A stretch of 64,000 nucleotides of DNA from an uncultured Coriobacteriales bacterium (GCA_934654475.1 CAKUFZ010000008.1:2361-66360); one strand, 5' to 3'. Shown: positions 8,132 through 58,113, counted from the stretch's first letter. Made by a program: numbers and translations. Notes: generated by a model from the sequence alone, not told the origin.

Positions 8132-8147
8132 TGTTTCACGTGAAACA
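8132..8147. promoter_or_regulatory. parS site (perfect TGTTTCACGTGAAACA)
   Basis: Exact 16-bp palindrome matching the ParB/Spo0J parS consensus. Confidence 0.85.
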
Positions 8148-8188
8148 TATCATTTGCCGATGCTTTGAATAAGAGAGTAGTTGAGACC

Positions 8189-10438: not shown

Positions 10439-10525
10439 CATTCTCCTGGATTTGTTGCGACAGGATGCACCCGTGTGCAGGCTCTTGAGAGACGCAAAGC
10501 AGTCCTGCAGTACTTTGGTATAAGA

Positions 10526-10541
10526 TGTTTCACGTGAAACA
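10526..10541. promoter_or_regulatory. parS site (perfect TGTTTCACGTGAAACA)
   Basis: Exact 16-bp palindrome just upstream of parA. Confidence 0.85.
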
Positions 10542-10552
10542 GTTGCACTGAA

Positions 10553-28133: not shown

Positions 28134-28209
28134 GGGCCGTTAGCTCAGTTGGCAGAGCAGGGGACTTTTAATCCCAAGGTCGTGGGTTCGACCCCCACAC
28201 GGCCCACCA
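28134..28209 (+). tRNA. tRNA-Lys (anticodon UUU), CCA encoded
   Basis: Hand-folded cloverleaf. Acceptor GGGCCGT/ACGGCCC, anticodon loop CTTTTAA, T-arm GTGGG-TTCGACC-CCCAC. 76 nt. Confidence 0.9.
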
Positions 28210-28478
28210 TTGCAAAAACGCAGGTCAGACGGTGTAAATCGTCTGGCCTGTTTGCGTTTTGGGGCCAAGGTGCAACACGAGGTGCGACAAAGTGCCACAA
28301 ATTCTCACATTTGGCGTACGCAACTGGCCAAGAAGTTGCCACAGACGGCTAATAATCTGTGTATAAAGCCATCGAAAGGGTTAGGGTGAAACATGCTTTA
28401 CCCCAACCATCAAGTAGGGGGGAGACGAGACCAACTCCTGAAGGGGGTAAGCATGTTCCCCTCCCAATAGAAATCGAT

Positions 28479-28530
28479 AAATGCCGCGCGCGGTGGTGCT
28501 CGACACAACCGCGTCGCGCGCGGCATTTTT
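28479..28530 (+). terminator. Orphan strong hairpin plus T-run
   Basis: AAATGCCGCGCGCG, a 22-nt loop, CGCGCGCGGCATTT, then TT. No convincing CDS lies upstream. Confidence 0.45.
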
Positions 28531-28631
28531 GCGATAGAATGCGCGGATAGTTCTCCATATGGTCGGCGGGCCTCAAAACGCAGCGCGATCCGTGGGCGTG
28601 GGGTTACTCGCGAGATGGCGTCCAAAAGCAG

Positions 28632-29861: not shown

Positions 29862-29928
29862 AGCCTGGCTTCGATCTAGACGGGGCACATGCCCCTTTGA
29901 AAGAACATGTGCCCCGTCTTTCAAATGG

Positions 29929-31623
29929 CTATGATTGAATAGCTTTGACAAGATAATGGGATTTGCTACCCTGTCCGGCTGCCATAAGCTCCTCTTTTGC
30001 AACCAGTTTTTGAAGTAGGCGATAAGCCTGCTTTCTGTTGATGTGCAAGAGGTTCTCCACATCACGCGTGGCGATTTTCCCTCCCTGTTCCCGTGCGAGT
30101 TTCATGACGAGTTCGGGATATCTGACTTTATCGATATCGGTCTGGAGTACAAAACTTTTCTCTTTGCCCGAACATCTATAGACATTTTTACTCAGTATAT
30201 ATGAACGAGGGCTATTGCCCCAAGCTTCAACCAAGCCTATTTCGACGAGTGTCTCAAGAGTCGAGCGAGCCATTGTCTCGGTGAAGTTCAGCTGCTGGGC
30301 TAGTTGCGATGCCGTGAGCCGCCTTTGGTTCTTCAACGCATCAAGTACGAGTAAGGAGCGTAAAGACAGTGCCCTACCGCTGCGCGCCTGCTCATCTTGT
30401 ATCATTTGCATGAAGGGTTTGTCGGGCGCACTACGTGCGATGAATACTTTGACGTATGTGGCTGTAGAGCCTGTGTAGTCTGGCAATGGGCGCCCGTAAT
30501 ACAAAGAACCCTCGAAGATACGGTCGACGCCTCGCCCTGTTTTCTCGGCAAGGCCAATGCGTTTGAGAGCACTCATGAGGCATTCGTTGCGACCATGGGG
30601 TTCAACGGTGAGAAGATTGTCTACAGTAACCCCTTCGATAAACCCGCCAGGATTGGCGATGGTCAGCCCTTCGTTGTCGACAAGTACACGGACGCGGCCA
30701 AGCGTCGCATAGTCTCGATGGCCAAATGCATTGACCAACGCTTCCCTGAATGCTCTCTTGTCGAACTGAGGTACAGACAGCCTGAACAAGCCGTCTTCAT
30801 ACTCTTCTTCGGGGTTCCAGGGATCAAGCATTTCGAACATCTTCTCAATTGTATAGAGAAGTGGTTGATCGAAATCCTGGTTTATTCGGACTTCAGTTCC
30901 ATCAAGAACTTGGAAAGTGGCACCTGCTGTTGGCATGCATCGGCGAATGGCATCTTCTTTGCCGACGAGAAGCATGCCTGCTACCGTGGGGGTTGGTTTT
31001 CCATCCACAACAGTAGTCATGCGTAGAGAACTCAGGATTTCGTTGTCGGAAAGTTCAAGCAATGACTGGTCGGCGCCACGACTGCGGGATAGGATTTCAC
31101 GCAGTCGAGTAATTTCCTCGGGACTAAAGTCATCGACGTTTGTGTCTGGAATGGGGAATGTTGAGTAGTCAAGCTGTCCAACGGTAGAAAGTCTAGTGAT
31201 GATTTCATATGGATACATGGGCACGCTTTCAGGCGAGCCGTCAGCCTTCAAGCGCCGTCGCATTATCTTTCCGTCAGAGGAAGCGACGATACCGACAGAT
31301 TTTGAGATTTCAATCAAGGCAATTTGGACGCCATGCTCGTCCGATTTGCCAGTGGCGTCCAGGTGTAAGACGGATATCCTGGCTGCTACGGGAGGGATTG
31401 TTTTGTTTGCAATCAGCGCTGCGAGTCTGATTACATCCTCGTGCTCTTTATGAAGGCCTGTTGGAACCCCGTTGTCCTCTACTCCGAGATAGATGGAACC
31501 CCCGTCGGTGTTGCAAAGCGCTACGACGGTATCGATGAGCTCGCTGTCTCGCAAGTGTTTCAAATCACTCTTGAATTCAACAGAGAGCGTTTCCTTTTCG
31601 GGAATCTCGCGTTGAGAAGCCAT
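29929..31623 (-). CDS. AlbA_2 (Schlafen-like) / HATPase_c_4 / winged-HTH putative DNA-binding regulator
   Basis: 564 aa from the ATG at 31623. The N-terminus KETLSVEFKSDLKHL...ALCNTDGGSIYLGVEDNG is AlbA_2-like. The middle ALVNAFGHRDY...NPGG is a GHKL-like segment. C-terminal wHTH repeats follow. Confidence 0.7.
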   Translation of the reverse strand: MASQREIPEKETLSVEFKSDLKHLRDSELIDTVVALCNTDGGSIYLGVEDNGVPTGLHKEHEDVIRLAALIANKTIPPVAARISVLHLDATGKSDEHGVQIALIEISKSVGIVASSDGKIMRRRLKADGSPESVPMYPYEIITRLSTVGQLDYSTFPIPDTNVDDFSPEEITRLREILSRSRGADQSLLELSDNEILSSLRMTTVVDGKPTPTVAGMLLVGKEDAIRRCMPTAGATFQVLDGTEVRINQDFDQPLLYTIEKMFEMLDPWNPEEEYEDGLFRLSVPQFDKRAFREALVNAFGHRDYATLGRVRVLVDNEGLTIANPGGFIEGVTVDNLLTVEPHGRNECLMSALKRIGLAEKTGRGVDRIFEGSLYYGRPLPDYTGSTATYVKVFIARSAPDKPFMQMIQDEQARSGRALSLRSLLVLDALKNQRRLTASQLAQQLNFTETMARSTLETLVEIGLVEAWGNSPRSYILSKNVYRCSGKEKSFVLQTDIDKVRYPELVMKLAREQGGKIATRDVENLLHINRKQAYRLLQKLVAKEELMAAGQGSKSHYLVKAIQS

Positions 31624-31671
31624 GTGTGTCCTGTCCTCCAATTTTACTGTCAAGTGGATTCTAACAGACGA

Positions 31672-31732
31672 TTGGGACATTGAATGGGACATGTCCTATT
31701 AAGATTAGGACATGTCCCATTCAATGTCCCAA
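31672..31732. repeat. Perfect 27-bp-arm palindrome (7-nt centre)
   Basis: TTGGGACATTGAATGGGACATGTCCTA, centre ttaagat, TAGGACATGTCCCATTCAATGTCCCAA. It lies 49-109 bp upstream of the AlbA_2 gene start. Confidence 0.95.
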
Positions 31733-31988
31733 AGACGCATGAGACTTCTGGACGACTGGAATGATGGACATTTGGGGGCCAGCGCTGGGATAAGATTGTT
31801 GGCGATTTATCCCACCTTATCCCGGATTTATCCCCCATTTTAGTCCTCTTGGTAGAGAAACCGCTGGTAGAGACGTCACGCGGAGTAGTCGATTTTGAGA
31901 CGTTAATCCCACTTATGCGCCGATGCCGCGCCGGGGGATGACGGGATTGGCCCAGTTTGAGCGACGCGGCATGGGCTGTGTGTTGGGA

Positions 31989-32028
31989 TTGGGACATTGA
32001 ATGGGACATGTCCTATTCAATGTCCCAA
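31989..32028. repeat. Second, internally deleted copy of the palindrome
   Basis: TTGGGACATTGAATGGGACATGTCCTATTCAATGTCCCAA. This is the left arm plus the last 13 nt of the right arm, with 21 nt missing. Confidence 0.9.
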
Positions 32029-32128
32029 TCCTTTTCGATGTCTTTGACGGTTTGGGTTGACAGATCCATGGCACGCCAAATGCAAAGAGGGCCAACTCCC
32101 TGGGGAGCCGGCCCTCTTGAGTGTTCGA

Positions 32129-32203
32129 TGGAGCGGGCAACGGGATTCGAACCCGCGAATACCAGCTTGGGAAGCTGGGGCCTTACCGCTTGGCGATGCC
32201 CGC
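32129..32203 (-). tRNA. tRNA-Gly (anticodon CCC), CCA encoded
   Basis: The reverse complement folds as GCGGGCA...anticodon loop TTCCCAA...T-arm GCGGG-TTCGAAT-CCCGT...TGCCCGC-T-CCA. 75 nt. Confidence 0.9.
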
Positions 32204-41491: not shown

Positions 41492-41526
41492 CGCTCCAAA
41501 CGGCGCACATCAGTCGCTCCGCCCAA

Positions 41527-41557
41527 GCCCCGTCGCATTCGTGCGGCGGGGCTTTTT
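41527..41557 (+). terminator. Rho-independent terminator (UUCG tetraloop) after asd
   Basis: GCCCCGTCGCA, loop ttcg, TGCGGCGGGGC, then TTTTT. Confidence 0.8.
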
Positions 41558-41653
41558 GGTGGCCTTGGGTCGGCGGCCGCGCTGAATCCGATTCGCACCG
41601 ATTGCGCGGTGCGCATATAATCCCGTCCAGACATGAAGAGGAGAGGAAGCGGT

Positions 41654-43162
41654 ATGCGACATGCGCGTCAGGGGATAGCGGGGGCGGCCAAGGGAATCGA
41701 CCCGCGCGCGTTGATAGGGTCTGCCTGCCTGTGGGCCTGGGTGGACGCGCTCTATAAGAGCGGGTTCTTTGCACCGTTTCATCCCGAGGCGCTCATGTCC
41801 GAGCTGGCAGTCTGGCTCACCTTCCTGTTGATTGTTCCCCTGAGTGCGCTTGTGCTTTGGCAAAAGGAGCGCGTGCGGGGCCTGTGCGTCCACAAGGGTT
41901 TCGCGCTTGGGTGCGGCGTTGCGGGAAGCACGGGGTCGGTGCTTTTTGCGTTGAGCGCCTTCAGCGGTAATTGGGTTGTGCTTGTGGCGGGTGCGGTTTT
42001 GGCGAGCCTCTTCATGGGCATGGCTATTCTCATGTGGGGCGCCGTCTATTGCAAACAGGGTGAACGCTCGGCGACGATCTATGTGGCCGGCGGTTTTGCC
42101 TGCGCCCTTGTGGCGGACGTCACGTTCATGCTCATGGAGTCGATTGCCTCCGCCTTGGCTCCCATGGCGCTGCCCCTGCTCTCGATGGTCTTCTTCAACC
42201 TTCTGCCCGAGGGAGAGCGCGCCTATTCCCAGATGACGGGAGAGGCTGAGACCGCCAAGCGCAAGCCGGGAAGCCTCCTTGCCCGCCTGCGCCTGGGCTT
42301 GGGCGTGTCGGTGCCCACGGTGTGCTCGCTTGCGCTCATCATGTTCGGCCTTGGCTACATGCAGCACCAGATGTCGTTTGCGCCCATGCAGGGCGCGGGC
42401 CCCGACATGGGGGTGGCCCTGCAGGTCGCGCGTGGCGTCATTGCGGTTGCGCTCTTTGCGCTGGCCATCGTTGCCCCCAAGCACACACATGTCGTCTACC
42501 GTGTGGGACTTCTCGCCATCATCGCGGGTTTCTCGCTTATGCCGCTGCTTGCCCCCACCGATCACTTTTGGGTGTCGGGCGCGGTGGTGTTGAGCGGCTA
42601 CACCACGTTCGACGTGCTCATTTGGGTCATCGTGGCCCAGGTTGCCTATGCCGGTATGTCCGATGGGCTGGGCGTCACCTGTGCGGTGCGCATGCTCATC
42701 TCAAGCCTGTTCTGCGGACTGGGCGGCATGGTTGGCATCTGGCTTGATGGCCTTACCACAAGTGCCCCCTTTGCCTATGCCGACGCCATCTTCATGGGCT
42801 ACCTCATGACCATCGCCGCTGTGCTTGTGCTCTCCGGTCGCGACGTGTGGGACCTTTTTGACGCGCGCCCTGTGGCCGCCCCTGACGCGGCCGCGCAAAC
42901 CGCCGGTGCCCCCAGCATCGAGGACGCGCTCGATGAGCTTGCCCAAGCCTGGGGCCTGACGGGCCGTGAGCGCGAGGTCTTTGGCTTCCTTGCCATGGGG
43001 CGCACCCAACCCTGGGTGGCAGAGCGCCTCTCCATCTCGGAGTCCACGGTGAACTCCCATGTGCGCCACATTTACGGAAAAGCTGGCATCAACAGCCGAC
43101 AAGAGCTGCTTGACCTGGTGTTTCATGCGCAATCACCTGAAGTTGTCGATAGGGTCGAGTAG
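41654..43162 (+). CDS. Membrane-embedded LuxR-family transcriptional regulator (multi-TM N-domain plus C-terminal HTH)
   Basis: About 10 hydrophobic segments. The C-terminus reads LTGREREVFGFLAMGRTQPWVAERLSISESTVNSHVRHIYGKAGINSRQELLDLV. The start is ambiguous between 41633 and 41654. Confidence 0.8.
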   Translation: MRHARQGIAGAAKGIDPRALIGSACLWAWVDALYKSGFFAPFHPEALMSELAVWLTFLLIVPLSALVLWQKERVRGLCVHKGFALGCGVAGSTGSVLFALSAFSGNWVVLVAGAVLASLFMGMAILMWGAVYCKQGERSATIYVAGGFACALVADVTFMLMESIASALAPMALPLLSMVFFNLLPEGERAYSQMTGEAETAKRKPGSLLARLRLGLGVSVPTVCSLALIMFGLGYMQHQMSFAPMQGAGPDMGVALQVARGVIAVALFALAIVAPKHTHVVYRVGLLAIIAGFSLMPLLAPTDHFWVSGAVVLSGYTTFDVLIWVIVAQVAYAGMSDGLGVTCAVRMLISSLFCGLGGMVGIWLDGLTTSAPFAYADAIFMGYLMTIAAVLVLSGRDVWDLFDARPVAAPDAAAQTAGAPSIEDALDELAQAWGLTGREREVFGFLAMGRTQPWVAERLSISESTVNSHVRHIYGKAGINSRQELLDLVFHAQSPEVVDRVE

Positions 43163-43322
43163 CTCGACAGCATCGTAGGATTTGCATCGCATAGCGTCTT
43201 TCAAGCGTTTCGAGGCGCATGCCGTTTTCCCAAACTGATGATCAGCACATGCCGACGAGGGCATGGCTCACATCAGTCATGAGGGCCCGCGACAACGGGC
43301 CCCAGGCAGAAGGGGATACGGT

Positions 43323-44990
43323 ATGTCCACCATCACGAGAAGGTCCTTTGTAAGCGCAGCCGCAACGGGTGCCGCCCTGAGCGCCGCCGCGGTTGCCCCT
43401 GCGGTCGCACTGGCCGACGAGGCCGTCGCGCCTGCCGAGGGCGCCCTGCACACCTGGGAGGTCGCACCCGACCCCATCACCGACATCGCCGAGACCTACG
43501 AGTACGACGTCGTCGTTGTCGGCGGTGGCATGGCCGGCATGGGTGCCGCTGAGGCGGCCGCCCGCAACGGTGCAAGCGTCGTCGTCGTGGAGCGCAGCGA
43601 GTGCGGGCGCTTCTGCGGCCTCGACATGTGCGCCATCGGCTCCAAGGTCCTCAAGGACAACGGCCTCGAGATCGATCCCGACAAGGCTGCCCGCCTCATG
43701 TATCAGGCCAGCCAGCAGACGGCCAACTACAACCTCATTCGCACCTGGGCCACGCAGACCGCCGGTGTCATCGACTACATCACCGAACTGTGTGCCGCCA
43801 ACGGTGTGACTGTGGAGCCCTCGACCGGCGGTACCTCCAAGGCCGGCTGGGACAAGATGCCCGAGCGTTACATTGTGTTCCAGGATGCCGTGCGCTACTC
43901 CAGCGACGAGTGGGGCGTGTTTGACCGCCCCGACGGCAAGGAGCCTCACCAGAACCTGGGCGACGTGCTCATCAAGTCGGCAACAGACAACGGCTGCGAG
44001 TACTTCTTCAACACCCATGTCGAGCAGCTCGTGGGCAGCGCGGCCGATGGCGTGACGGGCGTCATCGCTACCGACGCCGACGGCAAGCACGTGCAGTTCA
44101 ACGCCAAGAAGGGCGTCGTGCTGGCCACTGGCGACATCTCCGGCAACCAGGAGATGATCGACTGCTGGGCTCCCATCAAGAACTACGCCAACGAGAGCGC
44201 TTACGTTCCTCAGGGTGCCAACTCCGGCGACGCCATCCTTATGACCAAGTGGATCGGCGGCGGCATCTCCAAGAGCCCGGCTGCTCCCATGATTCACCAG
44301 TTCACGATTCAGACGCGCGGCTACCAGTGCACGGCGTTCTTCCTCTCCATGCTCGCGGTGAACTCTGACGGCAATCGCTTCATGAACGAGATGCCCTTCG
44401 AGCCCTACATTACCGACGCCCGCATGAACTCCAAGGGCAACGTCGCCTGGTCCATCCTCGACTCCAACTACGCCGAGTACGTGACCAAGCAGTTCCCCGA
44501 GGGCTACGAGTCCATGCTGCAGAACATTCCCGGCGAGCTCGAGGGTCGTGTGGCCGACGGCGAGGTCTTCCAGGCCGACACGCTTGAGGAACTGGCGGAG
44601 CTGCTCGGCGTGCCTGCCGACAACTTCACTGCTGCCGTGGAGGGCTATAACGGCATGGCCGACAAGGGTGAGGACACGCAGTTCGGCGTTGTGGCCGACT
44701 GGCTCTCGCCTGTCCGCGAGGCCCCGTTCTACGCCATCCCGATCTTTGCTTCCAACCTGGCCGTGTGCTATGGCGTCCACGTCAACGACGACTCCCAGGT
44801 CTGCACCGACGACGACCAGCCCATAGCTAGCCTCTTTGCCGCCGGTAACTGCCAGGGCGACTTCTTCGGCTTTAACTACCCCGTGCACTGCCCGGGTTGT
44901 TCCACGGGCCGCTCGCTCGTGTTCGGCCAGCTCATCGGCGAGGCCCTCGCCAAGGACGAGACCATCACCGAGCTCATCGCCTCGCGCTAG
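43323..44990 (+). CDS. Tat-exported FAD-dependent reductase (fumarate reductase/flavocytochrome flavoprotein family)
   Basis: Twin-arginine signal MSTITRRSFVSAAATGAALSAAAVAPAVALA. Dinucleotide fold YDVVVVGGGMAGMGAA. Confidence 0.8.
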   Translation: MSTITRRSFVSAAATGAALSAAAVAPAVALADEAVAPAEGALHTWEVAPDPITDIAETYEYDVVVVGGGMAGMGAAEAAARNGASVVVVERSECGRFCGLDMCAIGSKVLKDNGLEIDPDKAARLMYQASQQTANYNLIRTWATQTAGVIDYITELCAANGVTVEPSTGGTSKAGWDKMPERYIVFQDAVRYSSDEWGVFDRPDGKEPHQNLGDVLIKSATDNGCEYFFNTHVEQLVGSAADGVTGVIATDADGKHVQFNAKKGVVLATGDISGNQEMIDCWAPIKNYANESAYVPQGANSGDAILMTKWIGGGISKSPAAPMIHQFTIQTRGYQCTAFFLSMLAVNSDGNRFMNEMPFEPYITDARMNSKGNVAWSILDSNYAEYVTKQFPEGYESMLQNIPGELEGRVADGEVFQADTLEELAELLGVPADNFTAAVEGYNGMADKGEDTQFGVVADWLSPVREAPFYAIPIFASNLAVCYGVHVNDDSQVCTDDDQPIASLFAAGNCQGDFFGFNYPVHCPGCSTGRSLVFGQLIGEALAKDETITELIASR

Positions 44991-45095
44991 GAGGCTGTGC
45001 GTGAGGGGCGAGGGTCGCTTCCCCCGCAGTGCTCGCCCCTCTGCGGCATTTCATCCCCCTTGCGACATATATACCAAGAAGAAGGGAAACCTACG

Positions 45096-46919
45096 ATGAA
45101 CACCATCTCCCGTCGTTCCATGATTTGCGGTGCTGCCGGCATGGCTGCGTTGGCTGCTGCCGGCACTACCGCCGCCCTTGCCGACGTCGACCACAACCTC
45201 GAGGTCACCGACGGCAGCCCCATCGTGGGTGCCGTTGACCCCGCTGGTGTCGAGTGGGACTATGAAGCCGACATCGTCATCATCGGCGCAGGTGGCGCGG
45301 GCTTGCCTGCTGGTGTACGCGCCCTCGACGAGGGTGTCTCGGTCCTCTTTGTTGACGCCAACTATGATTGCGGTGGCCGTTGCGCTCTGTCCGGCGGCAA
45401 CATGCACTCGGGCTGCGGCACAAAGATCCAGGAGAAGTATGGCATCGAGGACTCTGCCGACAAGTATTACGAGGACCACACCACCCACGAGTGCATCAAC
45501 TCGATTTATGGTGACCGCAACGTGGTGCGCTCGGTGGCCGACCATATGGCCGAAGCCTATGATTACATCCTGGACAAGGGCGTGCTCGTGAAGGACGTCG
45601 AGCCCATGCACCTGCCCGACTACACCGAGGGCGGCGACCAGCCTGAGACGGTGGGCCGTTGGACGTATGCCGATCAGACCACCGAGGATTGGGTCTCCTA
45701 CGCCGACTATCTGCCGCCCTCTCAGGAAGGCGCCTACCAGGACCGTTGCGGCATCGCTATCACCCGTCCGCTTGAGCGCGTTGCTCGTGAGGCTGGCGCC
45801 CAGTTCCTTCTGAACTACCACATGGATAAGATTTACCGCGAAGGTGTGCTCGAGGGTCGCGTATTGGGCGTTCAGGCTCACTACTCGCCTACCATCCTGC
45901 CTGGTGAGGACGCTCCCCTTGCCCCGCTCAGCCCCTTCTCCGACGGCAACATCGATGAGACCAAGGAGACGGTAAACGTCCGCGCCAACAAGGCGGTCAT
46001 CATCGCGACGGGCGGCTCGACCGGCAACGTTTACTTCCGCACCATGATTGATGCCCGTCGCGGCGTTGAGTACGACTGCACTTCAGGCGACCCCTTCTGC
46101 CCCAAGGATGCCTCGGGCGAGATTGCAGCCATGGCCATCGGTGCCTGCCTGGGCGACATTGCCAACCAGGTTATCGGTGACTCCTTCCTCACCAAGGCGG
46201 CCATGATCGGCACGCAGTACACCGATTCTTTCGCCACCGTGCAGCCCACCTCGCCTCTCTTCAAGCTTTCCCGTGCCACGGGCCTGCGCGTCTATGACTG
46301 GTCGAACCTGCTTCAGGTGAACATGCTCGGCGAGCGCTTCGCCAACGAGGCCGACTCCTCCACCGACTGGAACGGCGCTGCCCTCGCCAGCGTTTTGACC
46401 GTCGACCCCTCTGACGGCGAGCTGCACCGCTATGGCGGCCCCCTCTGGACCATCTTCGACTCCAAGGCTGTCGAGCGCGAGGGATGGGTCATCGACGACA
46501 CGACCGTTGACCGCGAGGACGGCCGTTTCTTTGAGGCCGACACCCTTGAGGAGCTCGCCGAGAAGGTTGTGAACAAGTACTACGAGCAGATCAAGATGGA
46601 CCCCGAGACCCTCGTGGCCACCGTCAAGCGCTACAACGAGCTGGTGGACAAGGGCACCGACGAGGACTTCGGCAAGGAGGGCATGACCGACAAGATCGAG
46701 ACCGGCCCGTTCTATGCCGCTTGGTCCACGCCTGGCTTCCATGACTGCACCACGGGCCTGCGCGTGAACCGCAAGATGCAGGTCATGGACCTGTTTGGCC
46801 AGGTCATCCCCGGTCTGTACTGCGGCGGCGAGTCCTCGGGCGGTATGCGCATCCATGGTCTGGGTCGCGTGATCACCACCGGTTACATCGCGGGCCTGTG
46901 CGCCGCAACTGAGGAGTAA
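45096..46919 (+). CDS. Tat-exported FAD-dependent reductase (paralog)
   Basis: Signal MNTISRRSMICGAAGMAALAAAGTTAALA. ADIVIIGAGGAGLPAG. The C-terminus YCGGESSGGMRIHG is typical of the FAD_binding_2 family. Confidence 0.8.
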   Translation: MNTISRRSMICGAAGMAALAAAGTTAALADVDHNLEVTDGSPIVGAVDPAGVEWDYEADIVIIGAGGAGLPAGVRALDEGVSVLFVDANYDCGGRCALSGGNMHSGCGTKIQEKYGIEDSADKYYEDHTTHECINSIYGDRNVVRSVADHMAEAYDYILDKGVLVKDVEPMHLPDYTEGGDQPETVGRWTYADQTTEDWVSYADYLPPSQEGAYQDRCGIAITRPLERVAREAGAQFLLNYHMDKIYREGVLEGRVLGVQAHYSPTILPGEDAPLAPLSPFSDGNIDETKETVNVRANKAVIIATGGSTGNVYFRTMIDARRGVEYDCTSGDPFCPKDASGEIAAMAIGACLGDIANQVIGDSFLTKAAMIGTQYTDSFATVQPTSPLFKLSRATGLRVYDWSNLLQVNMLGERFANEADSSTDWNGAALASVLTVDPSDGELHRYGGPLWTIFDSKAVEREGWVIDDTTVDREDGRFFEADTLEELAEKVVNKYYEQIKMDPETLVATVKRYNELVDKGTDEDFGKEGMTDKIETGPFYAAWSTPGFHDCTTGLRVNRKMQVMDLFGQVIPGLYCGGESSGGMRIHGLGRVITTGYIAGLCAATEE

Positions 46920-46975
46920 GGCCGGTCTTCGGAAGACGCCGTGCTTCCGTGCTCCATAGAGCCTGATTTCCGTGA

Positions 46976-47008
46976 GCCCCTGTCGCATTCGTGCGGCGGG
47001 GGCTTTTT
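46976..47008 (+). terminator. Rho-independent terminator (UUCG tetraloop), near-duplicate of the asd terminator
   Basis: GCCCCTGTCGCA, loop ttcg, TGCGGCGGGGGC, then TTTTT. Confidence 0.8.
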
Positions 47009-47205
47009 GCTGGGCTCTGGGCGAGGTGGTCGCGCTAAAAAGGTGCGCCCACGGCACTCGGGCAATACCTTTTGCCCAGCTTCTTGCCGCTGCGTTGCAT
47101 ATGCAATCGACCTTGGTACACGTCACACACATAATCACGTGTTGCTTGCGCGCCTATGTGGCGCGTTTTTGTCAGGGACCGAAACACCACCAGGGGAGGG
47201 TGCAG

Positions 47206-50341: not shown

Positions 50342-50500
50342 CACCCTTAGAAAGAAATGCCAGTTCAGAGCCTACACAACAATGCATTAAAGCGCTGTAG
50401 AGCTTCATTCGCAGCCGCTCAGGGGCAAAAATCTGGAATCAGACGCGATGAGATCGCAGGCGCCGAGGGGTCGGCGCAAAAGGGACAAAGGGGAGCGACG

Positions 50501-51649
50501 ATGGACGATCAGACGATGCTTGCGGCGATTGACGATGAGGCTGTCGAGCCTGATATGAGCGTTGCCTCTCCTGAGTCTGTACCTGCAATCGACGAGTCGG
50601 CCGAGGCTGTGGACACCGTCGAGGAAACCCCCGAGGAGGCTGCCGCCCGCGAGGCTGCTGAGCTTGCCGAGAAGCGGGAGCGCGAGGCCCGTGAGGCTGC
50701 AGAGCGCGCGGCTGCCGACGAGGCTGCCCGCGAGGAGCGTGCCCAGGCTGCCGTCGAGAAACTCTCGAAGGGCGCCGGCTGGGCCGCGCAGGCAGGCGTC
50801 TACTACGACGCGACCCACGGTGCGGTCAAGGCAACGAGCGTTTCTGCGGCAAAGCAGGCGGCCCGCCCCGCCGATGAGGATGCCCCTACCGACGAGCGGA
50901 CCGAAGACGAGCTCGTTGCCGAACTTACCGACGTGGCACATGAGGGCGACTCCCTCGACGACATCCAGGCCAGCGAGGCCGATGCCGGCTACATCGACCC
51001 TGTCGTCTTCGGCCGCATGGTCGCCAAGGTCACCGAGGCTGTGACGCGCAACCCCCTGCAGCGCGAGCTCTTCTACAAGGTGCTCTCATTTTGCCAGGAG
51101 TCCAAGCCCCTGCGCGAGATCGAGCAGATGGTCATGGCGCTGCCGGGCTTTGAGCGCACCTCGGCCAACGCCTATCACTTCATCGCCGTTATGGAAAACG
51201 CCGGTGGCTTGGAGCGCTTCGAGCTTGACGACGAAGGCGATGTCGTGGACGACGCCCGCAAGGCCGGGCTCACCGAGGACGAGATCGACGACCTCGTGGC
51301 CGAGTACGCGTTCATGACCACGCCCGCCGGGCAGGCCGTGGTGGAGCAGCACACGCCCCGCGCGCGCATCATCGAGCTCTTGGGCCTTGTGCCCGAGCGT
51401 CGCGACACCTACATCGAGCTCATGGAGTTCCTGGCCGAGGAGCCTCGCACCTACAACGAGGTCACGCAGTTGCTCGACGGCCGCGACGTGCTCTGGCACC
51501 TGGACTCCAAGGGCAATCCTGAGCGTATGCAGCCCAGCGTCTTCTTGGACAAGCTGCATGACGCCGCCGCCATCGAGTGGCACCAAGGTTGGCAACTTAG
51601 CGAGGAGGGTCGCACCTACCTCGATGAGTTGAAGAGCGTCCAAAACTAG
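50501..51649 (+). CDS. Highly acidic hypothetical protein (E/A-rich coiled N-part, globular C-part)
   Basis: 382 aa from the ATG at 50501 (AAAGGGGAG upstream). Contains EEAAAREAAELAEKREREAREAAERAAADEAAREERAQ. No family recognised. Confidence 0.55.
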   Translation: MDDQTMLAAIDDEAVEPDMSVASPESVPAIDESAEAVDTVEETPEEAAAREAAELAEKREREAREAAERAAADEAAREERAQAAVEKLSKGAGWAAQAGVYYDATHGAVKATSVSAAKQAARPADEDAPTDERTEDELVAELTDVAHEGDSLDDIQASEADAGYIDPVVFGRMVAKVTEAVTRNPLQRELFYKVLSFCQESKPLREIEQMVMALPGFERTSANAYHFIAVMENAGGLERFELDDEGDVVDDARKAGLTEDEIDDLVAEYAFMTTPAGQAVVEQHTPRARIIELLGLVPERRDTYIELMEFLAEEPRTYNEVTQLLDGRDVLWHLDSKGNPERMQPSVFLDKLHDAAAIEWHQGWQLSEEGRTYLDELKSVQN

Positions 51650-51696
51650 GCGCTCTTCCGTATATGTACGTAAAAGCAAGGGAGAGGGAGGAAAGC

Positions 51697-54570
51697 ATGG
51701 CAGCAAACACCAACGTCACACGCCGCAGCTTTGTCAAGGCAGCAGCGCTTGCCGGCGCGGCGGTGGCCATCGGCACCCAGATGAGCGGTTCTCTCGTCGA
51801 GGCGCCTGCGGCATACGCTGACGAGGCTGACGACGTCAAGAAGGTCTACACCTCTTGTCACGGCTGCATCCAGATGTGCCCGGCTATCGCCACCATCGAG
51901 AACGGCGTGGTCACCAAGCTCGAGGGCGACGACCGCGCCCCCGTGTCTAAGGGCTCTCTGTGCATCAAGGGCCTCAACCAGCTGCACACCATGTACAGCC
52001 CGCGCCGTATCCTGCACCCGCTGAAGCGCGTCGGCGAGCGTGGCACGACCGACTTCGAGGTCATCTCCTGGGACGAGGCTATCGAGCTTGCGGCCACCCA
52101 GATCAAGGACGCCATTGACCAGTACGGCAACTACTCCTTCTTCTCCTCCGTTGGCGGCGGCGGCGCTTACTCGTTCATGGAGGCCATGACGCTTCCTATG
52201 GCGTTCGGCTCCCCCACCGTCTTTGAGCCTGGTTGCGCCCAGTGCTACCTGCCCCGTTGGTCCCTGTCGAAGCTCTTCTACGGTGGCGACGACCAGTCCA
52301 TCGCAGACAACGCCGTCCAGGAGATCTTCCGCGACGAGGAGAACAACAAGACCGAGCTCGTCGTGATCTGGGGCGCCCAGCCCTCCGTCTCCGAGACCGC
52401 TGAGTCCGGCCGCGGCATGGCCGAGCTGCGCGCTCGCGGCGTCAAGACCATCGTCGTCGACCCGAACTTCTCGCCCGACGCCGCCAAGGCCGACGTGTGG
52501 CTCCCCGTTCGCCCCGAGACCGACACGGGCGTGCTGCTGTCCTGGTACCGCTACATCTTCGAGAACAAGCTCTACGACGAAGAGTTCACCAAGTACTGGA
52601 CGAACCTGCCCTTCCTGATCGACCCCGACACCAAGCTTCCCGTCAAGGCTCAGGAGCTTTTCCCCGACTTCCAGCAGACCACGCCCGAGAACACCCCGGC
52701 GTACGTGTGCTACGACCTCAAGACCGGCGCCGTTGCTCCCTTCGAGTACAGCGCTCCTGCCGACTCCGCCGTTGATCCCGAGATCTTCTGGGAGGGCGAG
52801 CACGAGGGCAAGACGTACAAGACCGCCGGCCAGATCTACAAGGATCAGGCTGAGCCCTGGACCTTCGAGCACACCGAGGAAGTCACCTGGGTTCCCGCCG
52901 ACCTCAACGAGAAGGCCGTCAAGATGTACGCCGAGAACTGGGGCGGCATTGCCAACGGCGTCGCAGCCGACATGAGCGAGTCCGCCTCCCAGGTGCCCCT
53001 GGGCTGCATGGGCTTGGACGCCATCATGGGCCGCATCAACAAGCCCGGCGTCACCATGACGCAGAAGGGCGGCGGCTACTTCGCCACCATGACCGACACC
53101 GGTGAGACCGTCAACACGCGCCCGGTCACCTACAACAACGGCTTTAGCGGCATGTTCTCCGACATGTACGGCGTGGGTGCCGTCATCGGCATGTCCGACG
53201 CTGAGAACGAGGAGCGCATCAAGGCTCTGGGCGAGGCTATGCCTGACTCCCAGAAGACCCTCAACAAGCTGCTCCAGGATCGTCTGGGCATGAAGTACCA
53301 CAAGGGCCTCTACGCTTGGTGCCACTCCCACATCCCCACGGTGCGCGAGGCCATCGCCACTGGCGAGCCCTTCAAGCCGCGCGTGTGGTTCGACATGTCG
53401 GGCAACAAGCTCGCGATGCTCGGTAACGCCAAGAGCTGGTACGACGTCTTCCCCGAGGTGGACTTCATCATCGGCCAGTACCCGATGCTGACCTCCTTCC
53501 ACATCGAGGCCGCCGACCTGGTCTTCCCGCTGCGCGAGTGGCTCGAGGAGCCTATGGTCAACATGACCCAGCTCGACACCCAGTGGCTGCAGAACGAGTG
53601 CACCCACATCGGCGAGACCGTCTCCCACTCCATTCCTGCTGCACAGGTCATCAAGAAGTGCCAGGAGCTGTGGGGCGGCTCCATCCCCGGCGGCCTCGAG
53701 CTCGCTCCCGGCGTCTCCGCCTACCTGGGCAACGCCACCGAGCAGGAGGTCAAGGACTCCGTCGCACAGACCCTGGGCGCTGCCGATTGGGATACCCTCC
53801 AGTCCGACATCGACGCCTACGTGCCTTGCGTGACGCCCGACTACTTCAACTACCTGCAGCATGAGCAGCTCTGCGACGACGGCCTGCCTTCGGGCTTCGC
53901 CACCGAGTCGCGCAAGGTCGAGGTCTACTGCCAGATTCTTCTGCGCATGGCCCGCAACGGCTACCCGTTCTGCTACCCCGAGCCGCAGGAGGCCTGCGAC
54001 GACTACAGCCCGATCTGCGAGTTCATCGAACCCGCCGAGTCGCCTATCAACGACGAGGCCAACGGTGAGGGCGGCCAGTACCCGTTCATCCTGACCTCCG
54101 GCCGCGTGCCGTACTTCCATCACGGCACCATGCGCCACGCCGCGTTCTCCCGCGAGCTCTATCCTGCGCCTCACGTGCGCATCAACCCGCGCTCCGCTGC
54201 CGACCTCGACATCGCCGACGGCGACTGGCTCAAGATCACGAGCCGCCGCGGTGAGATCGCCGGCATCGCCGAGCTCACCGAGGGCGTGGCCCCCGGCGTT
54301 GTCTGGATGGAGCGCTACTGGAACCCCGAGTGCTTCGACGAGTCCATCCCCGCAGAGCAGCGCTCCGCTGGCTGGCGCGAGATGAACGTCAACGTGCTGA
54401 CCAAGAACGACGCCCCGTTCAACGAGGTGTACGGCTCTTACACCAACCGCGGCTTCACCGTGCGCGTGGAGAAGGGCGACAAGCCTGCCAACGTTTGGAT
54501 TGAGCCCGAGGAGTTCCAGCCCTTCATGCCCACGCTCCAGAGCGAGCCCAAGACTGAGGATGTGTTCTAA
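51697..54570 (+). CDS. Tat-exported molybdopterin (bis-MGD) oxidoreductase catalytic subunit, DMSO reductase superfamily
   Basis: Signal MAANTNVTRRSFVKAAALAGAAVAIG. N-terminal 4Fe-4S motif CHGCIQMCPA...C. 957 aa. Confidence 0.85.
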   Translation: MAANTNVTRRSFVKAAALAGAAVAIGTQMSGSLVEAPAAYADEADDVKKVYTSCHGCIQMCPAIATIENGVVTKLEGDDRAPVSKGSLCIKGLNQLHTMYSPRRILHPLKRVGERGTTDFEVISWDEAIELAATQIKDAIDQYGNYSFFSSVGGGGAYSFMEAMTLPMAFGSPTVFEPGCAQCYLPRWSLSKLFYGGDDQSIADNAVQEIFRDEENNKTELVVIWGAQPSVSETAESGRGMAELRARGVKTIVVDPNFSPDAAKADVWLPVRPETDTGVLLSWYRYIFENKLYDEEFTKYWTNLPFLIDPDTKLPVKAQELFPDFQQTTPENTPAYVCYDLKTGAVAPFEYSAPADSAVDPEIFWEGEHEGKTYKTAGQIYKDQAEPWTFEHTEEVTWVPADLNEKAVKMYAENWGGIANGVAADMSESASQVPLGCMGLDAIMGRINKPGVTMTQKGGGYFATMTDTGETVNTRPVTYNNGFSGMFSDMYGVGAVIGMSDAENEERIKALGEAMPDSQKTLNKLLQDRLGMKYHKGLYAWCHSHIPTVREAIATGEPFKPRVWFDMSGNKLAMLGNAKSWYDVFPEVDFIIGQYPMLTSFHIEAADLVFPLREWLEEPMVNMTQLDTQWLQNECTHIGETVSHSIPAAQVIKKCQELWGGSIPGGLELAPGVSAYLGNATEQEVKDSVAQTLGAADWDTLQSDIDAYVPCVTPDYFNYLQHEQLCDDGLPSGFATESRKVEVYCQILLRMARNGYPFCYPEPQEACDDYSPICEFIEPAESPINDEANGEGGQYPFILTSGRVPYFHHGTMRHAAFSRELYPAPHVRINPRSAADLDIADGDWLKITSRRGEIAGIAELTEGVAPGVVWMERYWNPECFDESIPAEQRSAGWREMNVNVLTKNDAPFNEVYGSYTNRGFTVRVEKGDKPANVWIEPEEFQPFMPTLQSEPKTEDVF

Positions 54571-55172
54571 TGAGAAACTGCCTTGTTATCGATCTGGACC
54601 GCTGCTCCGGCTGCGACTCCTGCATCGCCGCTTGCAAGCATGAGAACGGCATCGGCCTGGGCGTGTACCGCAACACCGTGGACCGCATGGGCCCCATCGG
54701 CGAGTGGCCTCGCCCGCAGCAGTACTGGCTGCCTCGCCAGTGCCAGCAGTGCGACAACGCCCCCTGCCTCGAGGTGTGCCCCACCGGCGCCACCTATCGC
54801 GATGACGAGTACGGCCTGATCGTCATCAACCAGGAGCAGTGCATCGGCTGCCAGCAGTGCATGACTGCCTGCCCCTTCGACGCCCGCTGGTTCGACGCCG
54901 CCAACTCCGTCGTTGAGAAGTGCGACGGCTGCATCGACAGGCTCAAGAAGGGCGAGAAGCCTGCATGCGTGCACAACTGCTGCTGCGGCGCCCGTCTCTT
55001 CGGCGACCTCGACGACCCCGAGTCCGACGTCTCGAAGGCCCTGGCCGCAGCCGACCCCGCGTCGCTGCACCAGTTCAACGACGAGCTCGGCGTCTCGCCC
55101 CGCACCGTCTACATCCTGTCGGAGAAGGTTTGCCCCTGGCAGGACGAGAAGACCGCCTATCGCGCTCGCTAA
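54570..55172 (+). CDS. 4Fe-4S ferredoxin-type electron-transfer subunit (DmsB/PsrB-like)
   Basis: Four Cys clusters: CSGCDSCIAAC, CQQCDNAPC, CIGCQQCMTAC and CDGC...C. The start overlaps the upstream stop (TAATG). Confidence 0.9.
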   Translation: MRNCLVIDLDRCSGCDSCIAACKHENGIGLGVYRNTVDRMGPIGEWPRPQQYWLPRQCQQCDNAPCLEVCPTGATYRDDEYGLIVINQEQCIGCQQCMTACPFDARWFDAANSVVEKCDGCIDRLKKGEKPACVHNCCCGARLFGDLDDPESDVSKALAAADPASLHQFNDELGVSPRTVYILSEKVCPWQDEKTAYRAR

Positions 55173-55173
55173 A

Positions 55174-55465
55174 GCGTTGCGGAACCTGGCCTGCTGCGTT
55201 CTCGGGAGGCTCACGTACATCTAGTACGCATCGCCTCCCGACGCCTTGCAGGCCAGAACCCGCGTTTTGGGATGTTGCGGAACCTCGTCCGCCGCGTTCT
55301 CCACGGGACTCGTCGCAAAGGACGCTCCGTGCACAGGAGCTCACGTACATCTAGTACGCATCGCACCTGTGCGCCTTGCGGACGAGAACCCGCGTTTGGT
55401 TCACTGCGGAACCTGGAATGACGCAATGGGACGGATGTAATGCGTCATTCCCTTTGAGCGGGTTG
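55174..55465 (+). repeat. Three tandem extended stem-loop units (intra-operon), each headed by TGCGGAACC
   Basis: Unit 1 spans 55174-55270, unit 2 spans 55271-55399 and unit 3 spans 55400-55465. Units 1 and 2 share a 26-nt core, GCTCACGTACATCTAGTACGCATCGC. The flanking stems differ in sequence but stay complementary. Confidence 0.85.
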
Positions 55466-55609
55466 GGTTGAATGATTGATTGATGGGGGCGGGGTTGCCT
55501 GTGTGGCGCCTCGCCCCCATGACACAAAGGGACGGGTGCAGTGCGCTGTTCTCGGACCTTGCAAGATGGAGCTGCCGCTTGTGCGGCGTTGTCACGGAGA
55601 GGAACCACA

Positions 55610-56416
55610 ATGAGCGAGAACACGATGGCCGAGACGCTAGATACCCAGGCCGAGGCCACCTCCGCCGACGCCGCCGCACAGGCTGAGCAGGCTGCGACTG
55701 CCGTTCCCGAGGAGGTTGCCGCTGCCCTTGAGGGCCGCGCCGCCTTCTACGAGACGCTTGCAGGCCTTTTCTGGATGCCGCTTACCGCCGAGCAGGTAGA
55801 GGCCATGGCCAACCAGGACTTCTCCGCCTATGCCGAGCTCAACGAGGACTTCGCCGACGGCGTGAACGACATCACGCGCTACCTGCGCAAGCGCAACACC
55901 GGCACGCGCGACGAGATGGCCGTGGACTTCACGGGCACCTTCACGGGCATCAAGACCTACGAGGGCAAGACCGCCGTGCCGTACAAGTCGGTCTTCACGA
56001 GCGAAGACGGCCTTATGTACCAGGAGGGTTTCCGCGAGGTGTACCACGCCTTCAAGGCTGAGGCCATCAAGAAGCGCGCCGGGCTCGACTACCCCGACGA
56101 CCACATCTCGTTCCTCTGCCAGTTCATGGCCATCATGAGCCGCCGCACGCTCGAGGCCCTGCAGGCCGGCGACTACGACAAAGCCGCCCACGACGTGAAG
56201 GCCTCCGCCGACTTCCTCGACAACAACATCCTCTCCTGGTACGACCAGCTCATGGAGCGTTCGCTGTTGCTCATCAAGACCCGCTTCTACAAGGGTGTCA
56301 TGAAGCTTGCACGTGGCTTCTTCACGCTCGACCGCGAGACGCTGGCCGACCTGGCCGATGAAGTTGCCGAGCTTGCCGAGGCGGCCAAGAAGGCCGAAGG
56401 GACCCCTGCCGAGTAA
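55610..56416 (+). CDS. TorD/DmsD-family redox enzyme maturation chaperone
   Basis: RAAFYETLAGLFWMPLT and PDDHISFLCQFMAIM are typical TorD-like segments. GGAGAGGAA SD upstream. Confidence 0.75.
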   Translation: MSENTMAETLDTQAEATSADAAAQAEQAATAVPEEVAAALEGRAAFYETLAGLFWMPLTAEQVEAMANQDFSAYAELNEDFADGVNDITRYLRKRNTGTRDEMAVDFTGTFTGIKTYEGKTAVPYKSVFTSEDGLMYQEGFREVYHAFKAEAIKKRAGLDYPDDHISFLCQFMAIMSRRTLEALQAGDYDKAAHDVKASADFLDNNILSWYDQLMERSLLLIKTRFYKGVMKLARGFFTLDRETLADLADEVAELAEAAKKAEGTPAE

Positions 56417-56471
56417 CGCAAAGCTTGCCTGTCCTTTCAAGGCATCCAAAAATATAGTTGAGCTGCCACTT

Positions 56472-56499
56472 TTGCCCTCTCCTCTTTTTTGCGTACAAT
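56472..56499 (+). promoter_or_regulatory. Candidate promoter for the second LuxR gene (-35 TTGCCC, 16-nt spacer, -10 TACAAT)
   Basis: TACAAT at 56494-56499 and TTGCCC at 56472-56477. Confidence 0.35.
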
Positions 56500-56532
56500 C
56501 ATGTGCGTGCATTCAAGGGGAGAGGGTTTTGT

Positions 56533-58113
56533 ATGGGGCAGACGAGCGCTTCTGAGGGGAAGCGAGGGTTAACCGAAGAGCTGGCGACGCGCTGGCCGTC
56601 GTTGCCGTTCATGGCGTTTGGCGTGTGGACCGCCTGGTCGTCGCTTACCTATTCCGGGTCGCTGTGGCTTTCTGACAACGAGGTCAACGGGTTCTATCTG
56701 TCGTTGCTGTTCGTCATCTCCACCATGGCGTGCGCTGCCGTGTTCCTTGGGGCGCCGTTCTTTGCCCGCCGCCATGCCGATAAGGGCGACGTCTCGAATC
56801 GTGCTGTCATGGGACTCGGTCTCACGGCCGCTCTGGGTGCCTTCCTCATCATCCTCGCTGGCCCGTACTGGCTGGGCGTTTCCCGCCAAGCAACCTCTGT
56901 GTTTGTAGTCGGAGCCCTTATGACGGGTGTTGGCACGGCCGGCATCGGTCTGCGCTGTGCGACGCTCTATGGCGGGCTGCCGCCGCGCAGGGCGCTCATC
57001 GTGGCGGCATTGTCGCAGCTTGTGGCTTCGTTTATCTATTTTGTTGTGCTGGAGACCCCTGCATGGGCTCCCATTGCCCATGGTCCCTCGCTTGCCCATA
57101 TCCTGGCGTTCACGTTGCTGCCAGTGATTGCCGCCTGGCTTTCGTGCATCAAGCCGTCGCGCGAGTCGCTCTTTGAGGAGGGGGTTCGCCAGTACCCGGC
57201 AAACAGCGGCGCGCTGCCTTCGGCGTTTTGGCGTTTTACGGCCTTTGCGTTTGCGCTTGCCCTCATCACCACGTTCATCCGTTCCTCCATGGTGACGGTG
57301 AGTGCGCTTGCCAACACGGTCGAGGGCAACAACGTGCTGCAGCTCCTGCGTATCGCGATGGTGCTCGTCGTGATCGCCTGGACGCTGCGCTCCGACGCCC
57401 AGGGGTTCGACCTGGGGCGCGTTTGCTCGCTTGCCACGGTGCTTGCCGCCGTGGTCACTGCTTGCTCGGCGGCTCTGGGCGGAACCACGAGTGCGCTCAG
57501 TGTGATCGTGTACTTTGCCAGCAGCATCTTCGAGTTCTTCATGTGGTGCCTGCTTGCCTTCATCGTGTACCAGAAGCACATCTCGCCGCTTGCCGTGTTC
57601 GGCTTCGGCCGCGGCCTCTTCATGCTCGGTTGCGCCCTGGGTTGGGCGCTTGGTATCGTCGCGATGCCGATCATCGAGGCGGCCTCGGCGCAGGTGGTTG
57701 TGAGCATCGTGCTTGCCGGTGCCATCATCATCTTGTGGCTTGCCCTGTTCTCGGGCAAGGACTACGAGCGCCTCTTCTCCACGGTGGGCGAGGACGAGCT
57801 GTCGCTGGAGGACCTCTTTGAAATCGATCAGCGCCCTGACGAAGGCACCGAGGCGGGCCAGCCCAAGTCGGAGCGCAAAGGCAAGTTCGGCCAGGCAGTG
57901 GAGGCAGTCGCGGGCCGCAACGCCCTCTCTGCCCGCGAGGCTGACGTGCTGCGCTACCTTGCCATGGGCTATGGCTCGGACCGCATCGCCCAAACCATGG
58001 GCGTCAAGGTGAACACCGTGCGCACCCACACCCACAACGTCTACGTCAAGCTCGACGTCCACTCCCGCGAGGAACTCATGCGCCTGGTAGACGACGAAGT
58101 GGCGGGGATGTAG
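56533..58113 (+). CDS. Membrane-embedded LuxR-family transcriptional regulator (second paralog)
   Basis: Multi-TM N-domain. The C-terminus reads LSAREADVLRYLAMGYGSDRIAQTMGVKVNTVRTHTHNVYVKLDVHSREELMRLV. Confidence 0.8.
   Translation: MGQTSASEGKRGLTEELATRWPSLPFMAFGVWTAWSSLTYSGSLWLSDNEVNGFYLSLLFVISTMACAAVFLGAPFFARRHADKGDVSNRAVMGLGLTAALGAFLIILAGPYWLGVSRQATSVFVVGALMTGVGTAGIGLRCATLYGGLPPRRALIVAALSQLVASFIYFVVLETPAWAPIAHGPSLAHILAFTLLPVIAAWLSCIKPSRESLFEEGVRQYPANSGALPSAFWRFTAFAFALALITTFIRSSMVTVSALANTVEGNNVLQLLRIAMVLVVIAWTLRSDAQGFDLGRVCSLATVLAAVVTACSAALGGTTSALSVIVYFASSIFEFFMWCLLAFIVYQKHISPLAVFGFGRGLFMLGCALGWALGIVAMPIIEAASAQVVVSIVLAGAIIILWLALFSGKDYERLFSTVGEDELSLEDLFEIDQRPDEGTEAGQPKSERKGKFGQAVEAVAGRNALSAREADVLRYLAMGYGSDRIAQTMGVKVNTVRTHTHNVYVKLDVHSREELMRLVDDEVAGM

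Follow-up and report, generated by a model that had tools for sequence, protein, structure and literature searches.

Regulators of the LuxR type with 10-12 transmembrane (TM) helices were defined as a family by Dong et al. (2022, PMC9734109), with 83 members in Eggerthella lenta, 50 of which lie near flavin enzymes; DadR, HcdR and CadR each activate the neighbouring reductase in a substrate-specific manner (PMC9734109). Exported flavin reductases of family PF00890 (FAD_binding_2) are respiratory and substrate-induced (Little et al. 2023, bioRxiv 10.1101/2022.12.26.521950). A further described flavoprotein, Cgr2, is co-transcribed with the multihaem cytochrome Cgr1 and needs one or more [4Fe-4S] clusters (Koppel et al. 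2018, PMC5953540). Here we analysed a 64-kb stretch of DNA from an uncultured Coriobacteriales bacterium (CAKUFZ010000008.1:2361-66360, hereafter the window), in which three + strand genes fill positions 41654-46919 and code for a regulator, LuxR1, followed by two flavoproteins, Flv1 and Flv2. We consider it likely that they are a self-contained module of the Eggerthellaceae type, induced by its substrate, the exported enzymes of which reduce an organic acceptor. This agrees with the proposal of an inducible exported module under a polytopic LuxR regulator made in the first-pass annotation of this DNA, and is supported, by analogy, by the domain layout and by the class of the two enzymes, PF00890 proteins exported by twin-arginine translocation (Tat). 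The genes themselves and the start of LuxR1 given in that annotation were borne out by the open reading frames (ORFs), the ribosome-binding sites (RBS), Pfam matches and the GC content at third codon positions (GC3), which at 0.76-0.86 picks out the three frames as coding in a region of about 63% GC.

LuxR1 resembles DadR, HcdR and CadR in its Coriobacteriales host, its C-terminal GerE/LuxR helix-turn-helix (HTH), its N-terminal domain of at least 10 helices, the combination of a fast-changing sensor with a constant HTH, and its position beside an exported redox enzyme. The HTH (PF00196, residues 442-495, E = 2.4e-12, 46.7 bits for a cut-off of 23.5) is its sole Pfam domain. Kyte-Doolittle hydrophobicity, calculated with a 19-residue window, gave ten peaks of at least 1.68 between residues 51 and 394 and two weaker N-terminal stretches; the helix count is 10, 11 or 12, and the TM motifs are conserved in the alignment of orthologues. 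The recognition helix of the HTH, ISESTVNSHVRHIY, is invariant in 9 of the 9 loci compared, and the sensor domain diverges, faster than Flv1 and Flv2 do within the LuxR1 orthogroup. Full-length identity in this orthogroup runs from 93% to 42%. Beyond it matches cover the HTH alone, and the sensor has no detectable similarity. This collapse agrees with the identity of less than 20% reported between the sensor domains of paralogous 10-12-TM regulators (PMC9734109). One difference is that the characterised DadR, HcdR and CadR regulate molybdopterin catechol dehydroxylases, not flavin reductases. As far as its sequence can tell, LuxR1 shows the features that define the 10-12-TM LuxR family, and by analogy it would activate its target in a substrate-dependent manner.

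Flv1 and Flv2 share with UrdA, CrdA-D, IrdA and CirA-D of E. lenta and Holdemania filiformis a PF00890 domain, a signal peptide and an adjoining TM regulator. Their N-termini, MSTITRRSFV...AVALA/DE in Flv1 and MNTISRRSMI...AALA/DV in Flv2, carry a twin-arginine signal and an A-x-A cleavage site (slash). These signals were read from the sequence motif (RR, then an Ala-rich hydrophobic stretch, then A-L-A); the TRRSFV and SRRSMI signals on two FAD_binding_2 proteins had already been pointed out in the first-pass annotation, together with the polytopic character of the regulator, for which we count at least 10 hydrophobic segments. Dinucleotide-binding motifs of the GxGxxG type are present as VVGGGMAG in Flv1 and IIGAGGAG in Flv2. 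AlphaFold models (mean predicted local distance difference test score, pLDDT, of 83 for Flv1 and 85 for Flv2, with residues 1-39 and 1-45, respectively, disordered) both have the two-domain fold of soluble fumarate reductase, UrdA and the 3-ketosteroid dehydrogenases (KstD). Foldseek matched Flv1 to 6T86 (E = 6e-34, TM-score of 0.81 on the target) and Flv2 to Fcc3 (E = 6e-35). Both enzymes are 21-26% identical to proteins of solved structure, namely Shewanella flavocytochrome c3, UrdA, 3-ketosteroid dehydrogenases and cyclohexanone dehydrogenase, and the best fold matches of Flv1 (UrdA, Fcc3, KstD) fall in this range.

Flv1 and Flv2 are 25% identical to each other. Of their earlier description as two divergent paralogues in tandem, the divergence holds and a close paralogy does not: at this identity they are not a recent tandem duplication, and they are deep paralogues from different clades, with different evolutionary histories. 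Both have the sequence-level features of exported respiratory-type PF00890 reductases, although they are likened to the enzymes of Little et al. by description, not by orthology. They differ from these enzymes in that two proteins of different clades stand under one regulator, in the invariant Glu that Flv1 has at the catalytic-Arg position, and in their host, an uncultured lineage.

Cgr2 can also be compared by description: it is a PF00890 flavoprotein exported by Tat, has many cysteines and divergent residues in its active site, and shares its cluster with Cac3, a gene of the LuxR type, and Cac4, another flavoprotein. Unlike Cgr2, Flv1 and Flv2 have no conserved set of four cysteines and no cytochrome in the window, where no ORF has two or more CXXCH motifs; the earlier remark that no cytochrome is encoded nearby thus holds. 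The association of the architecture with Eggerthellaceae reductases stands as well, but Cgr2, which had been cited as the example, is an atypical comparator because of its dedicated cytochrome partner Cgr1.

The architecture of the module is already described and ordinary for this bacterial family, not rare. In E. lenta the LuxR-reductase arrangement is the most frequent one, with 64 reductase genes that adjoin such regulators. What goes beyond routine is the combination of one sensor with two unrelated reductases, the missing FMN_bind partner of Flv2 and the near-identical terminator repeats that flank the module. For most reductases that gut Eggerthellaceae export, no substrate is known; those with known substrates act on drugs, neurotransmitters, polyphenols and immune metabolites. 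The module is widespread in human-gut metagenomes, with database clusters of up to 250 member sequences. Its compactness, its clean boundaries and its conservation in several species of an uncultured lineage make it a workable target for substrate finding. It leaves current understanding unchallenged: its value is that of one more defined entry in a large catalogue, of which the two-enzyme arrangement and the missing electron donor are the only unusual points.

Proposed mechanism, regulatory DNA and electron supply

In the mechanism that we propose, LuxR1 would sense an extracellular or membrane-level small molecule through its membrane domain of 10-12 helices, and its HTH would activate a promoter in the 160-nucleotide (nt) spacer between LuxR1 and Flv1 (43163-43322), at or near a bipartite motif found there (Table 1). 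Flv1 and Flv2 would be co-transcribed, fold with flavin adenine dinucleotide (FAD) in the cytoplasm and be exported by the Tat route to the outer face of the membrane, where they would draw electrons from the respiratory chain via a carrier encoded elsewhere in the genome. Their acceptor, probably a dietary or host molecule, would most likely contain a C=C bond in conjugation with a carbonyl group or an aromatic system, and its reduction would support anaerobic respiration. The two enzymes would most likely share a substrate, or have closely related ones, to which the single regulator responds.

Related loci bear labels such as L001, and nine of them (L001-L007, L008 and L012) hold all three genes. 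The bipartite motif, a candidate operator or inducible promoter, consists of the blocks CGTTTYG and CRAACTGA, about 20 nt apart. Both blocks are kept in 10 loci, including that of a Flv1 relative of 65% identity, and the sequence around them is not conserved in these loci. The motif stays directly 5' of Flv1 even where 1-1.4 kb of other DNA lie between the LuxR gene and Flv1. Given the invariant recognition helix, its conservation is in line with an unchanged DNA target. Upstream of LuxR1, a candidate sigma-70-like promoter is overlapped by an inverted repeat, ATTCGCACCG/CGGTGCGCAT, and its TATAAT(C) element is conserved 5' of the LuxR gene in L001-L007; we infer its promoter function from these sequence features.

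The 105-nt spacer between Flv1 and Flv2 contains a GC-rich hairpin, which was considered as a terminator and ruled out: it lacks a T-run, its stability is like that of shuffled sequence, and it is missing in L005-L007, where the gap is merely 30-45 nt or so. The hairpin is found in L001-L004, and L008 and L012 have different ones. As it is not terminator-like and is missing in three related species, we read Flv1 and Flv2 as one transcript.

Several points weigh against the proposed mechanism. No terminator was detected in the interval between LuxR1 and Flv1, where constitutive read-through is possible, and the bipartite motif is weakly palindromic (5/7), with arms wider apart than those of a classical lux box. 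Pfam scans of the large candidate ORFs, which did not cover all ORFs, revealed no FMN_bind, ApbE or NrfD-type protein and no quinol-dehydrogenase anchor, and PF04205 (FMN_bind) was not found by Pfam in Flv1 or Flv2. As no donor was found in the window, that of both enzymes must be encoded elsewhere, and the link of the module to respiration consequently rests on analogy. Moreover, outside the syntenic loci the nearest relatives of Flv2 depend on an FMN_bind partner, for which the window locus has no counterpart; Flv2 may rely on a gene not seen here, or may be less active.

FMN_bind-dependent extracellular flavin reductases are described, with Shewanella UrdA and Listeria FrdA as examples. The Tat-signal enzymes that are 50-68% identical to Flv2 are associated with this domain in two ways: it is fused at the C-terminus in relatives at 50-55% identity, and a separate FMN_bind protein directly follows those of L017 (6001-8909, 54%) and L020 (5001-7575, 68%). 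The reductase island of L022 encodes a fused FMN_bind-FAD_binding_2 protein, which shows that the FMN_bind route is in use within the family. Unlike these FMN_bind-dependent relatives, Flv2 has neither the fusion nor the neighbour, and it stands under a TM-LuxR instead of a LysR regulator. In both L017 and L020 a divergently transcribed LysR regulator precedes the Flv2 relative, and in L017 the cytochrome c biogenesis genes ResB and CcsA come next after the FMN_bind protein.

Two apparent close variants of Flv2, P0144 and P0147, were rejected. They are near-identical to Flv2 except for a foreign N-terminus, an FMN_bind lipoprotein-like domain in P0144 and another flavoprotein in P0147; the junctions fall at conserved motifs on short contigs, and both are most likely chimeric metagenome assemblies.

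Gene order and the pairing of the two reductases

The nearest genomes are metagenome-assembled genomes of uncultured human-gut Coriobacteriales or Coriobacteriaceae (Hadza, HRGM, UHGG, UMGS124), with 95-98% identity in Flv1. At least nine related loci, all from uncultured Coriobacteriales of the human gut, keep the LuxR-Flv1-Flv2 trio together. In the database matches of the three proteins the longest contigs agree in length, which points to the genes sitting on shared contigs. L001-L007 are syntenic throughout, in the order purMN, asd, LuxR, Flv1, Flv2 and then an ATP-binding cassette (ABC) transporter. L008 and L012 keep the trio (55% identity in LuxR, 78% in Flv1 and 82% in Flv2) among other neighbours, which shows that it moves and persists as a unit. 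Two of the syntenic loci, L006 and L007 (88% identity in Flv1, full Coriobacteriales synteny), were deposited as Alistipes onderdonkii and Acutalibacteraceae bins, which are probably contaminated or mislabelled.

Relatives of Flv1 at 65-71% identity (L013, L022) adjoin a TM-LuxR and lack Flv2; that of L022 lies in an Eggerthellaceae-like reductase island. A relative at 47% identity (L009) also has a LuxR gene upstream. In L013-L016 the LuxR gene and the Flv1 relative stand between a gene with an FTCD_C domain (fchA-like) and folD, in a folate C1 cluster, another case of a LuxR-Flv1 pair lodged in a housekeeping cluster; in L013 (span 3741-8807) the relative is 65% identical, belongs to a database cluster of 416 sequences and has no Flv2 beside it.

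A direct repeat of about 65 nt (41526-41590 and 46976-47040), each copy of which carries a terminator hairpin, brackets the module exactly. Its 20-nt core is identical in both copies (46982-47001 in copy B), and no third copy exists in the window. L001 has the same altered loop in both copies, and both copies of L003 equal those of the window. This suggests the scar of a single-crossover integration, or gene conversion between the copies.

A further reading, which we regard as unlikely, holds that the pairing of the two reductases is specific to this lineage and arose when a LuxR-Flv1 unit captured a partnerless Flv2. The ancestral unit may be the form that stands alone in relatives at 47-71% identity, and Flv2 may have come from the FMN_bind-dependent clade without its electron-donating partner. 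The two enzymes may then successively reduce one and the same compound, from the diet or the host, that has two reducible bonds, or Flv2 may use a new electron route; the 65-nt terminator repeats may be the insertion scar of a single-crossover recombination.

We find it distinctly unlikely that Flv1 and Flv2 make up one obligate complex or a two-step pathway, in which one feeds electrons or substrate to the other. Such a partnership would be compatible with their tandem arrangement in 9 of 9 trio loci, the short gap in L005-L007, the single sensor, and the loss by Flv2 of the FMN_bind partner that its relatives use. However, a Tat signal and an FAD motif are present in each of the two enzymes, as are pocket residues conserved specifically within its family, the 65-71% relatives of Flv1 have a LuxR gene and no Flv2, and relatives of Flv2 occur without Flv1. 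In L012 Flv2 is frameshifted and Flv1 intact, which also argues against a complex, although a sequencing error is possible. The Flv2 orthologue of this locus (9794-11607) is split over three frames, with LuxR and Flv1 intact, and is either a pseudogene or the result of assembly frameshift errors. In L012 an insertion of two small nuclease-like genes (YhcG_C, DUF1016_N) separates the LuxR gene from Flv1.

Active-site residues and cysteines

Active-site Arg and His residues, the inspection of which had been recommended in the first-pass annotation, were mapped, for Flv1 through HMMER alignments, and followed through 116 relatives of Flv1 (52-98% identity) and 120 of Flv2. On alignment to Fcc3 and UrdA, the catalytic Arg of fumarate and urocanate reductases is found in neither enzyme. 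The position of the proton-donating Arg (R402 in Fcc3, R411 in UrdA) is occupied in Flv1 by Glu360, in 116 of 116 relatives, and that of the carboxylate-binding Arg (R545 in Fcc3, R560 in UrdA) by Tyr519, in 115 of 116 with one gap. The His of the HPT motif aligns with an Ala, His325 being located three residues beyond; His325, His486, Arg367 and Arg530 are invariant among the 116 relatives. In Flv2 a variable loop, Ser421-Thr423, covers the position of the catalytic Arg. His549 and Asp550 are invariant and His587 is present in 119 of 120, while the carboxylate-binding position lies, depending on the alignment, at or near Arg585 (83/120) or Arg591 (113/120).

According to Little et al., members of the urocanate-type clade carry Arg at active-site positions 4 and 6, and three other clades, of verified cinnamate reductases, have Tyr at position 6 (bioRxiv 10.1101/2022.12.26.521950). 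With a Tyr at the carboxylate-Arg position as in clades 2-4 of these authors, Flv1 appears to group with their tyrosine type, and Flv2 to be intermediate. We thus picture the active site of Flv1 as formed by Glu360, Tyr519 and His325, like that of the tyrosine-type cinnamate-reductase clades; Flv2 would keep His549 and Arg585 or Arg591, without the catalytic Arg.

It is improbable that one or both enzymes work oxidatively, as extracellular KstD-like desaturases of a cyclic ketone or steroid that feed electrons to the chain. Flv1 does align over its full length with the 3-ketosteroid delta4-(5alpha)-dehydrogenase 4AT0, its matches to KstD and cyclohexanone dehydrogenase come close to those to the reductases, and NCBIfam models of the KstD type reach 138 bits. 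Moreover, KstD tyrosines polarise the ketone, and Flv1 has a Tyr in place of the carboxylate-binding Arg. However, the KstD scores, as well as that of the vinyl-phenol reductase model, are far under their cut-offs, and verified cinnamate reductases, too, have Tyr at this position as a rule. In this superfamily the exported enzymes are respiratory reductases, and the dehydrogenases are cytosolic and have no signals (Little et al. 2023, bioRxiv 10.1101/2022.12.26.521950).

That Flv1 and Flv2 are housekeeping fumarate or urocanate reductases beside an unrelated LuxR gene is highly improbable and already largely refuted, since, although flavocytochrome c3 fumarate reductases and UrdA are the PDB entries that match them best, in sequence as in fold, and their best NCBIfam model is TIGR01813 (flavo_cyto_c), the identity is that low (21-26%), the scores of 160 and 164 bits lie below the cut-off of 285, neither enzyme reaches any curated NCBIfam equivalog cut-off, adjacency to LuxR is retained over deep divergence, and the two Arg and the HPT His are replaced by Glu, Tyr and Ala in Flv1 and the proton-donating Arg by the variable Ser/Thr loop in Flv2. 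Clustering with such enzymes, which the first-pass annotation had set against its own proposal, is not what these values indicate.

The Cys-rich loops of both proteins (C94/C98/C103 and C523/C526 in Flv1; C92/C96/C107 and C328/C335 in Flv2) were considered as an iron-sulphur (Fe-S) site that would replace the FMN_bind or cytochrome partner. Only C98, C157, C494, C523 and C526 last through the Flv1 orthogroup and only C107, C328 and C335 through that of Flv2, with no four-Cys set conserved through either. The Fe-S site was dropped as unsupported because the conserved sets are too small, and also because the Flv2 relative at 68% identity keeps these last three Cys beside its FMN_bind protein. 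Two cysteines of Flv1, Cys98 (43614-43616) and Cys526 (44898-44900), change together within the family: members of the orthogroup at 62% identity and above have Cys at both positions, and in the sister group at 52-60% position 98 is Arg or His and position 526 Ile or Val almost throughout. The two may form a disulfide, or act as a specificity switch close to the flavin.

Module boundaries and the rest of the window

The upstream neighbour of the module is the housekeeping gene asd, which ends at 41491. The intrinsic terminator after asd has a folding energy of -41.3 kcal/mol (z = -3.2 against shuffles), and that after Flv2 one of -48.3 kcal/mol over the folded 106 nt (46915-47020; z = -3.0). 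The FecCD, ABC and binding-protein genes downstream of Flv2 were examined as a possible part of the module and ruled out, as a strong terminator and a separate RBS lie between; the most likely start of the FecCD permease, preceded by its own RBS, is at 47206. These genes are also not beside the trio in L008 and L012, which counts against their membership. An Rfam scan gave two tRNAs only and no riboswitch.

Table 1. Genes, terminators and candidate regulatory elements of the module, in window coordinates (aa, amino acids; bp, base pairs)
Feature	Position	Strand	Remarks
Intrinsic terminator after asd, upstream boundary, repeat copy A	41526-41559	+	13-bp GC stem, then UUUUU
Candidate sigma-70-like promoter of LuxR1, TTCGCA-18-TATAAT	41592-41621	+	10/12 consensus positions
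LuxR1	ORF 41633-43162; likely ATG 41654 (502 aa)	+	RBS AGGAGAGGAAGCGGT before the ATG
Candidate bipartite motif GCGTTTCG ... CCCAAACTGATGATCAGCAC, 5' of Flv1	43205-43248	+	conserved across loci
Flv1	43323-44990 (555 aa)	+	FAD_binding_2, E = 6.7e-42; RBS AAGGGGA
GC-rich hairpin, Flv1-Flv2 spacer	45003-45041	+	perfect 10-bp arms, no T-run, z = -0.83
Flv2	45096-46919 (607 aa)	+	FAD_binding_2, E = 4.8e-30
Intrinsic terminator after Flv2, downstream boundary, repeat copy B	46976-47009	+	14-bp stem, then UUUUU

Between the ABC transporter and a second reductase module, positions 50357-51649 encode a 430-aa acidic, Ala/Glu-rich protein without Pfam match. It is conserved at 72-93% in about six related loci, L001-L004 and L006 among them, and the matches in L002, L004 and L006 are N-terminally truncated. 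The second module (51664-58113) comprises a molybdopterin oxidoreductase of 968 aa, a 4Fe-4S subunit of 200 aa, a NarJ/TorD-like chaperone and another polytopic LuxR with 11 hydrophobic segments. No membrane-anchor gene was found in this module, and its positions 55173-55540 (370 nt) hold no convincing ORF.

The start of the window corresponds to the chromosomal origin region, with recF (482-1585), dnaN (1613-2719) and dnaA (2924-4726), all on the - strand, followed by a YidC-family gene (7375-8130) and a ParA-like ATPase gene (10553-11368); GC content is about 50% at 6-12 kb. A patch of lower GC content (50-56%) extends over 28134-32203, between tRNA genes at 28134-28206 (+) and 32132-32203 (-). 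An ORF within it (28632-29861) matches just the C-terminal specificity domain of a Type ISP restriction enzyme, and the patch is possibly the remnant of a mobile or defence island.

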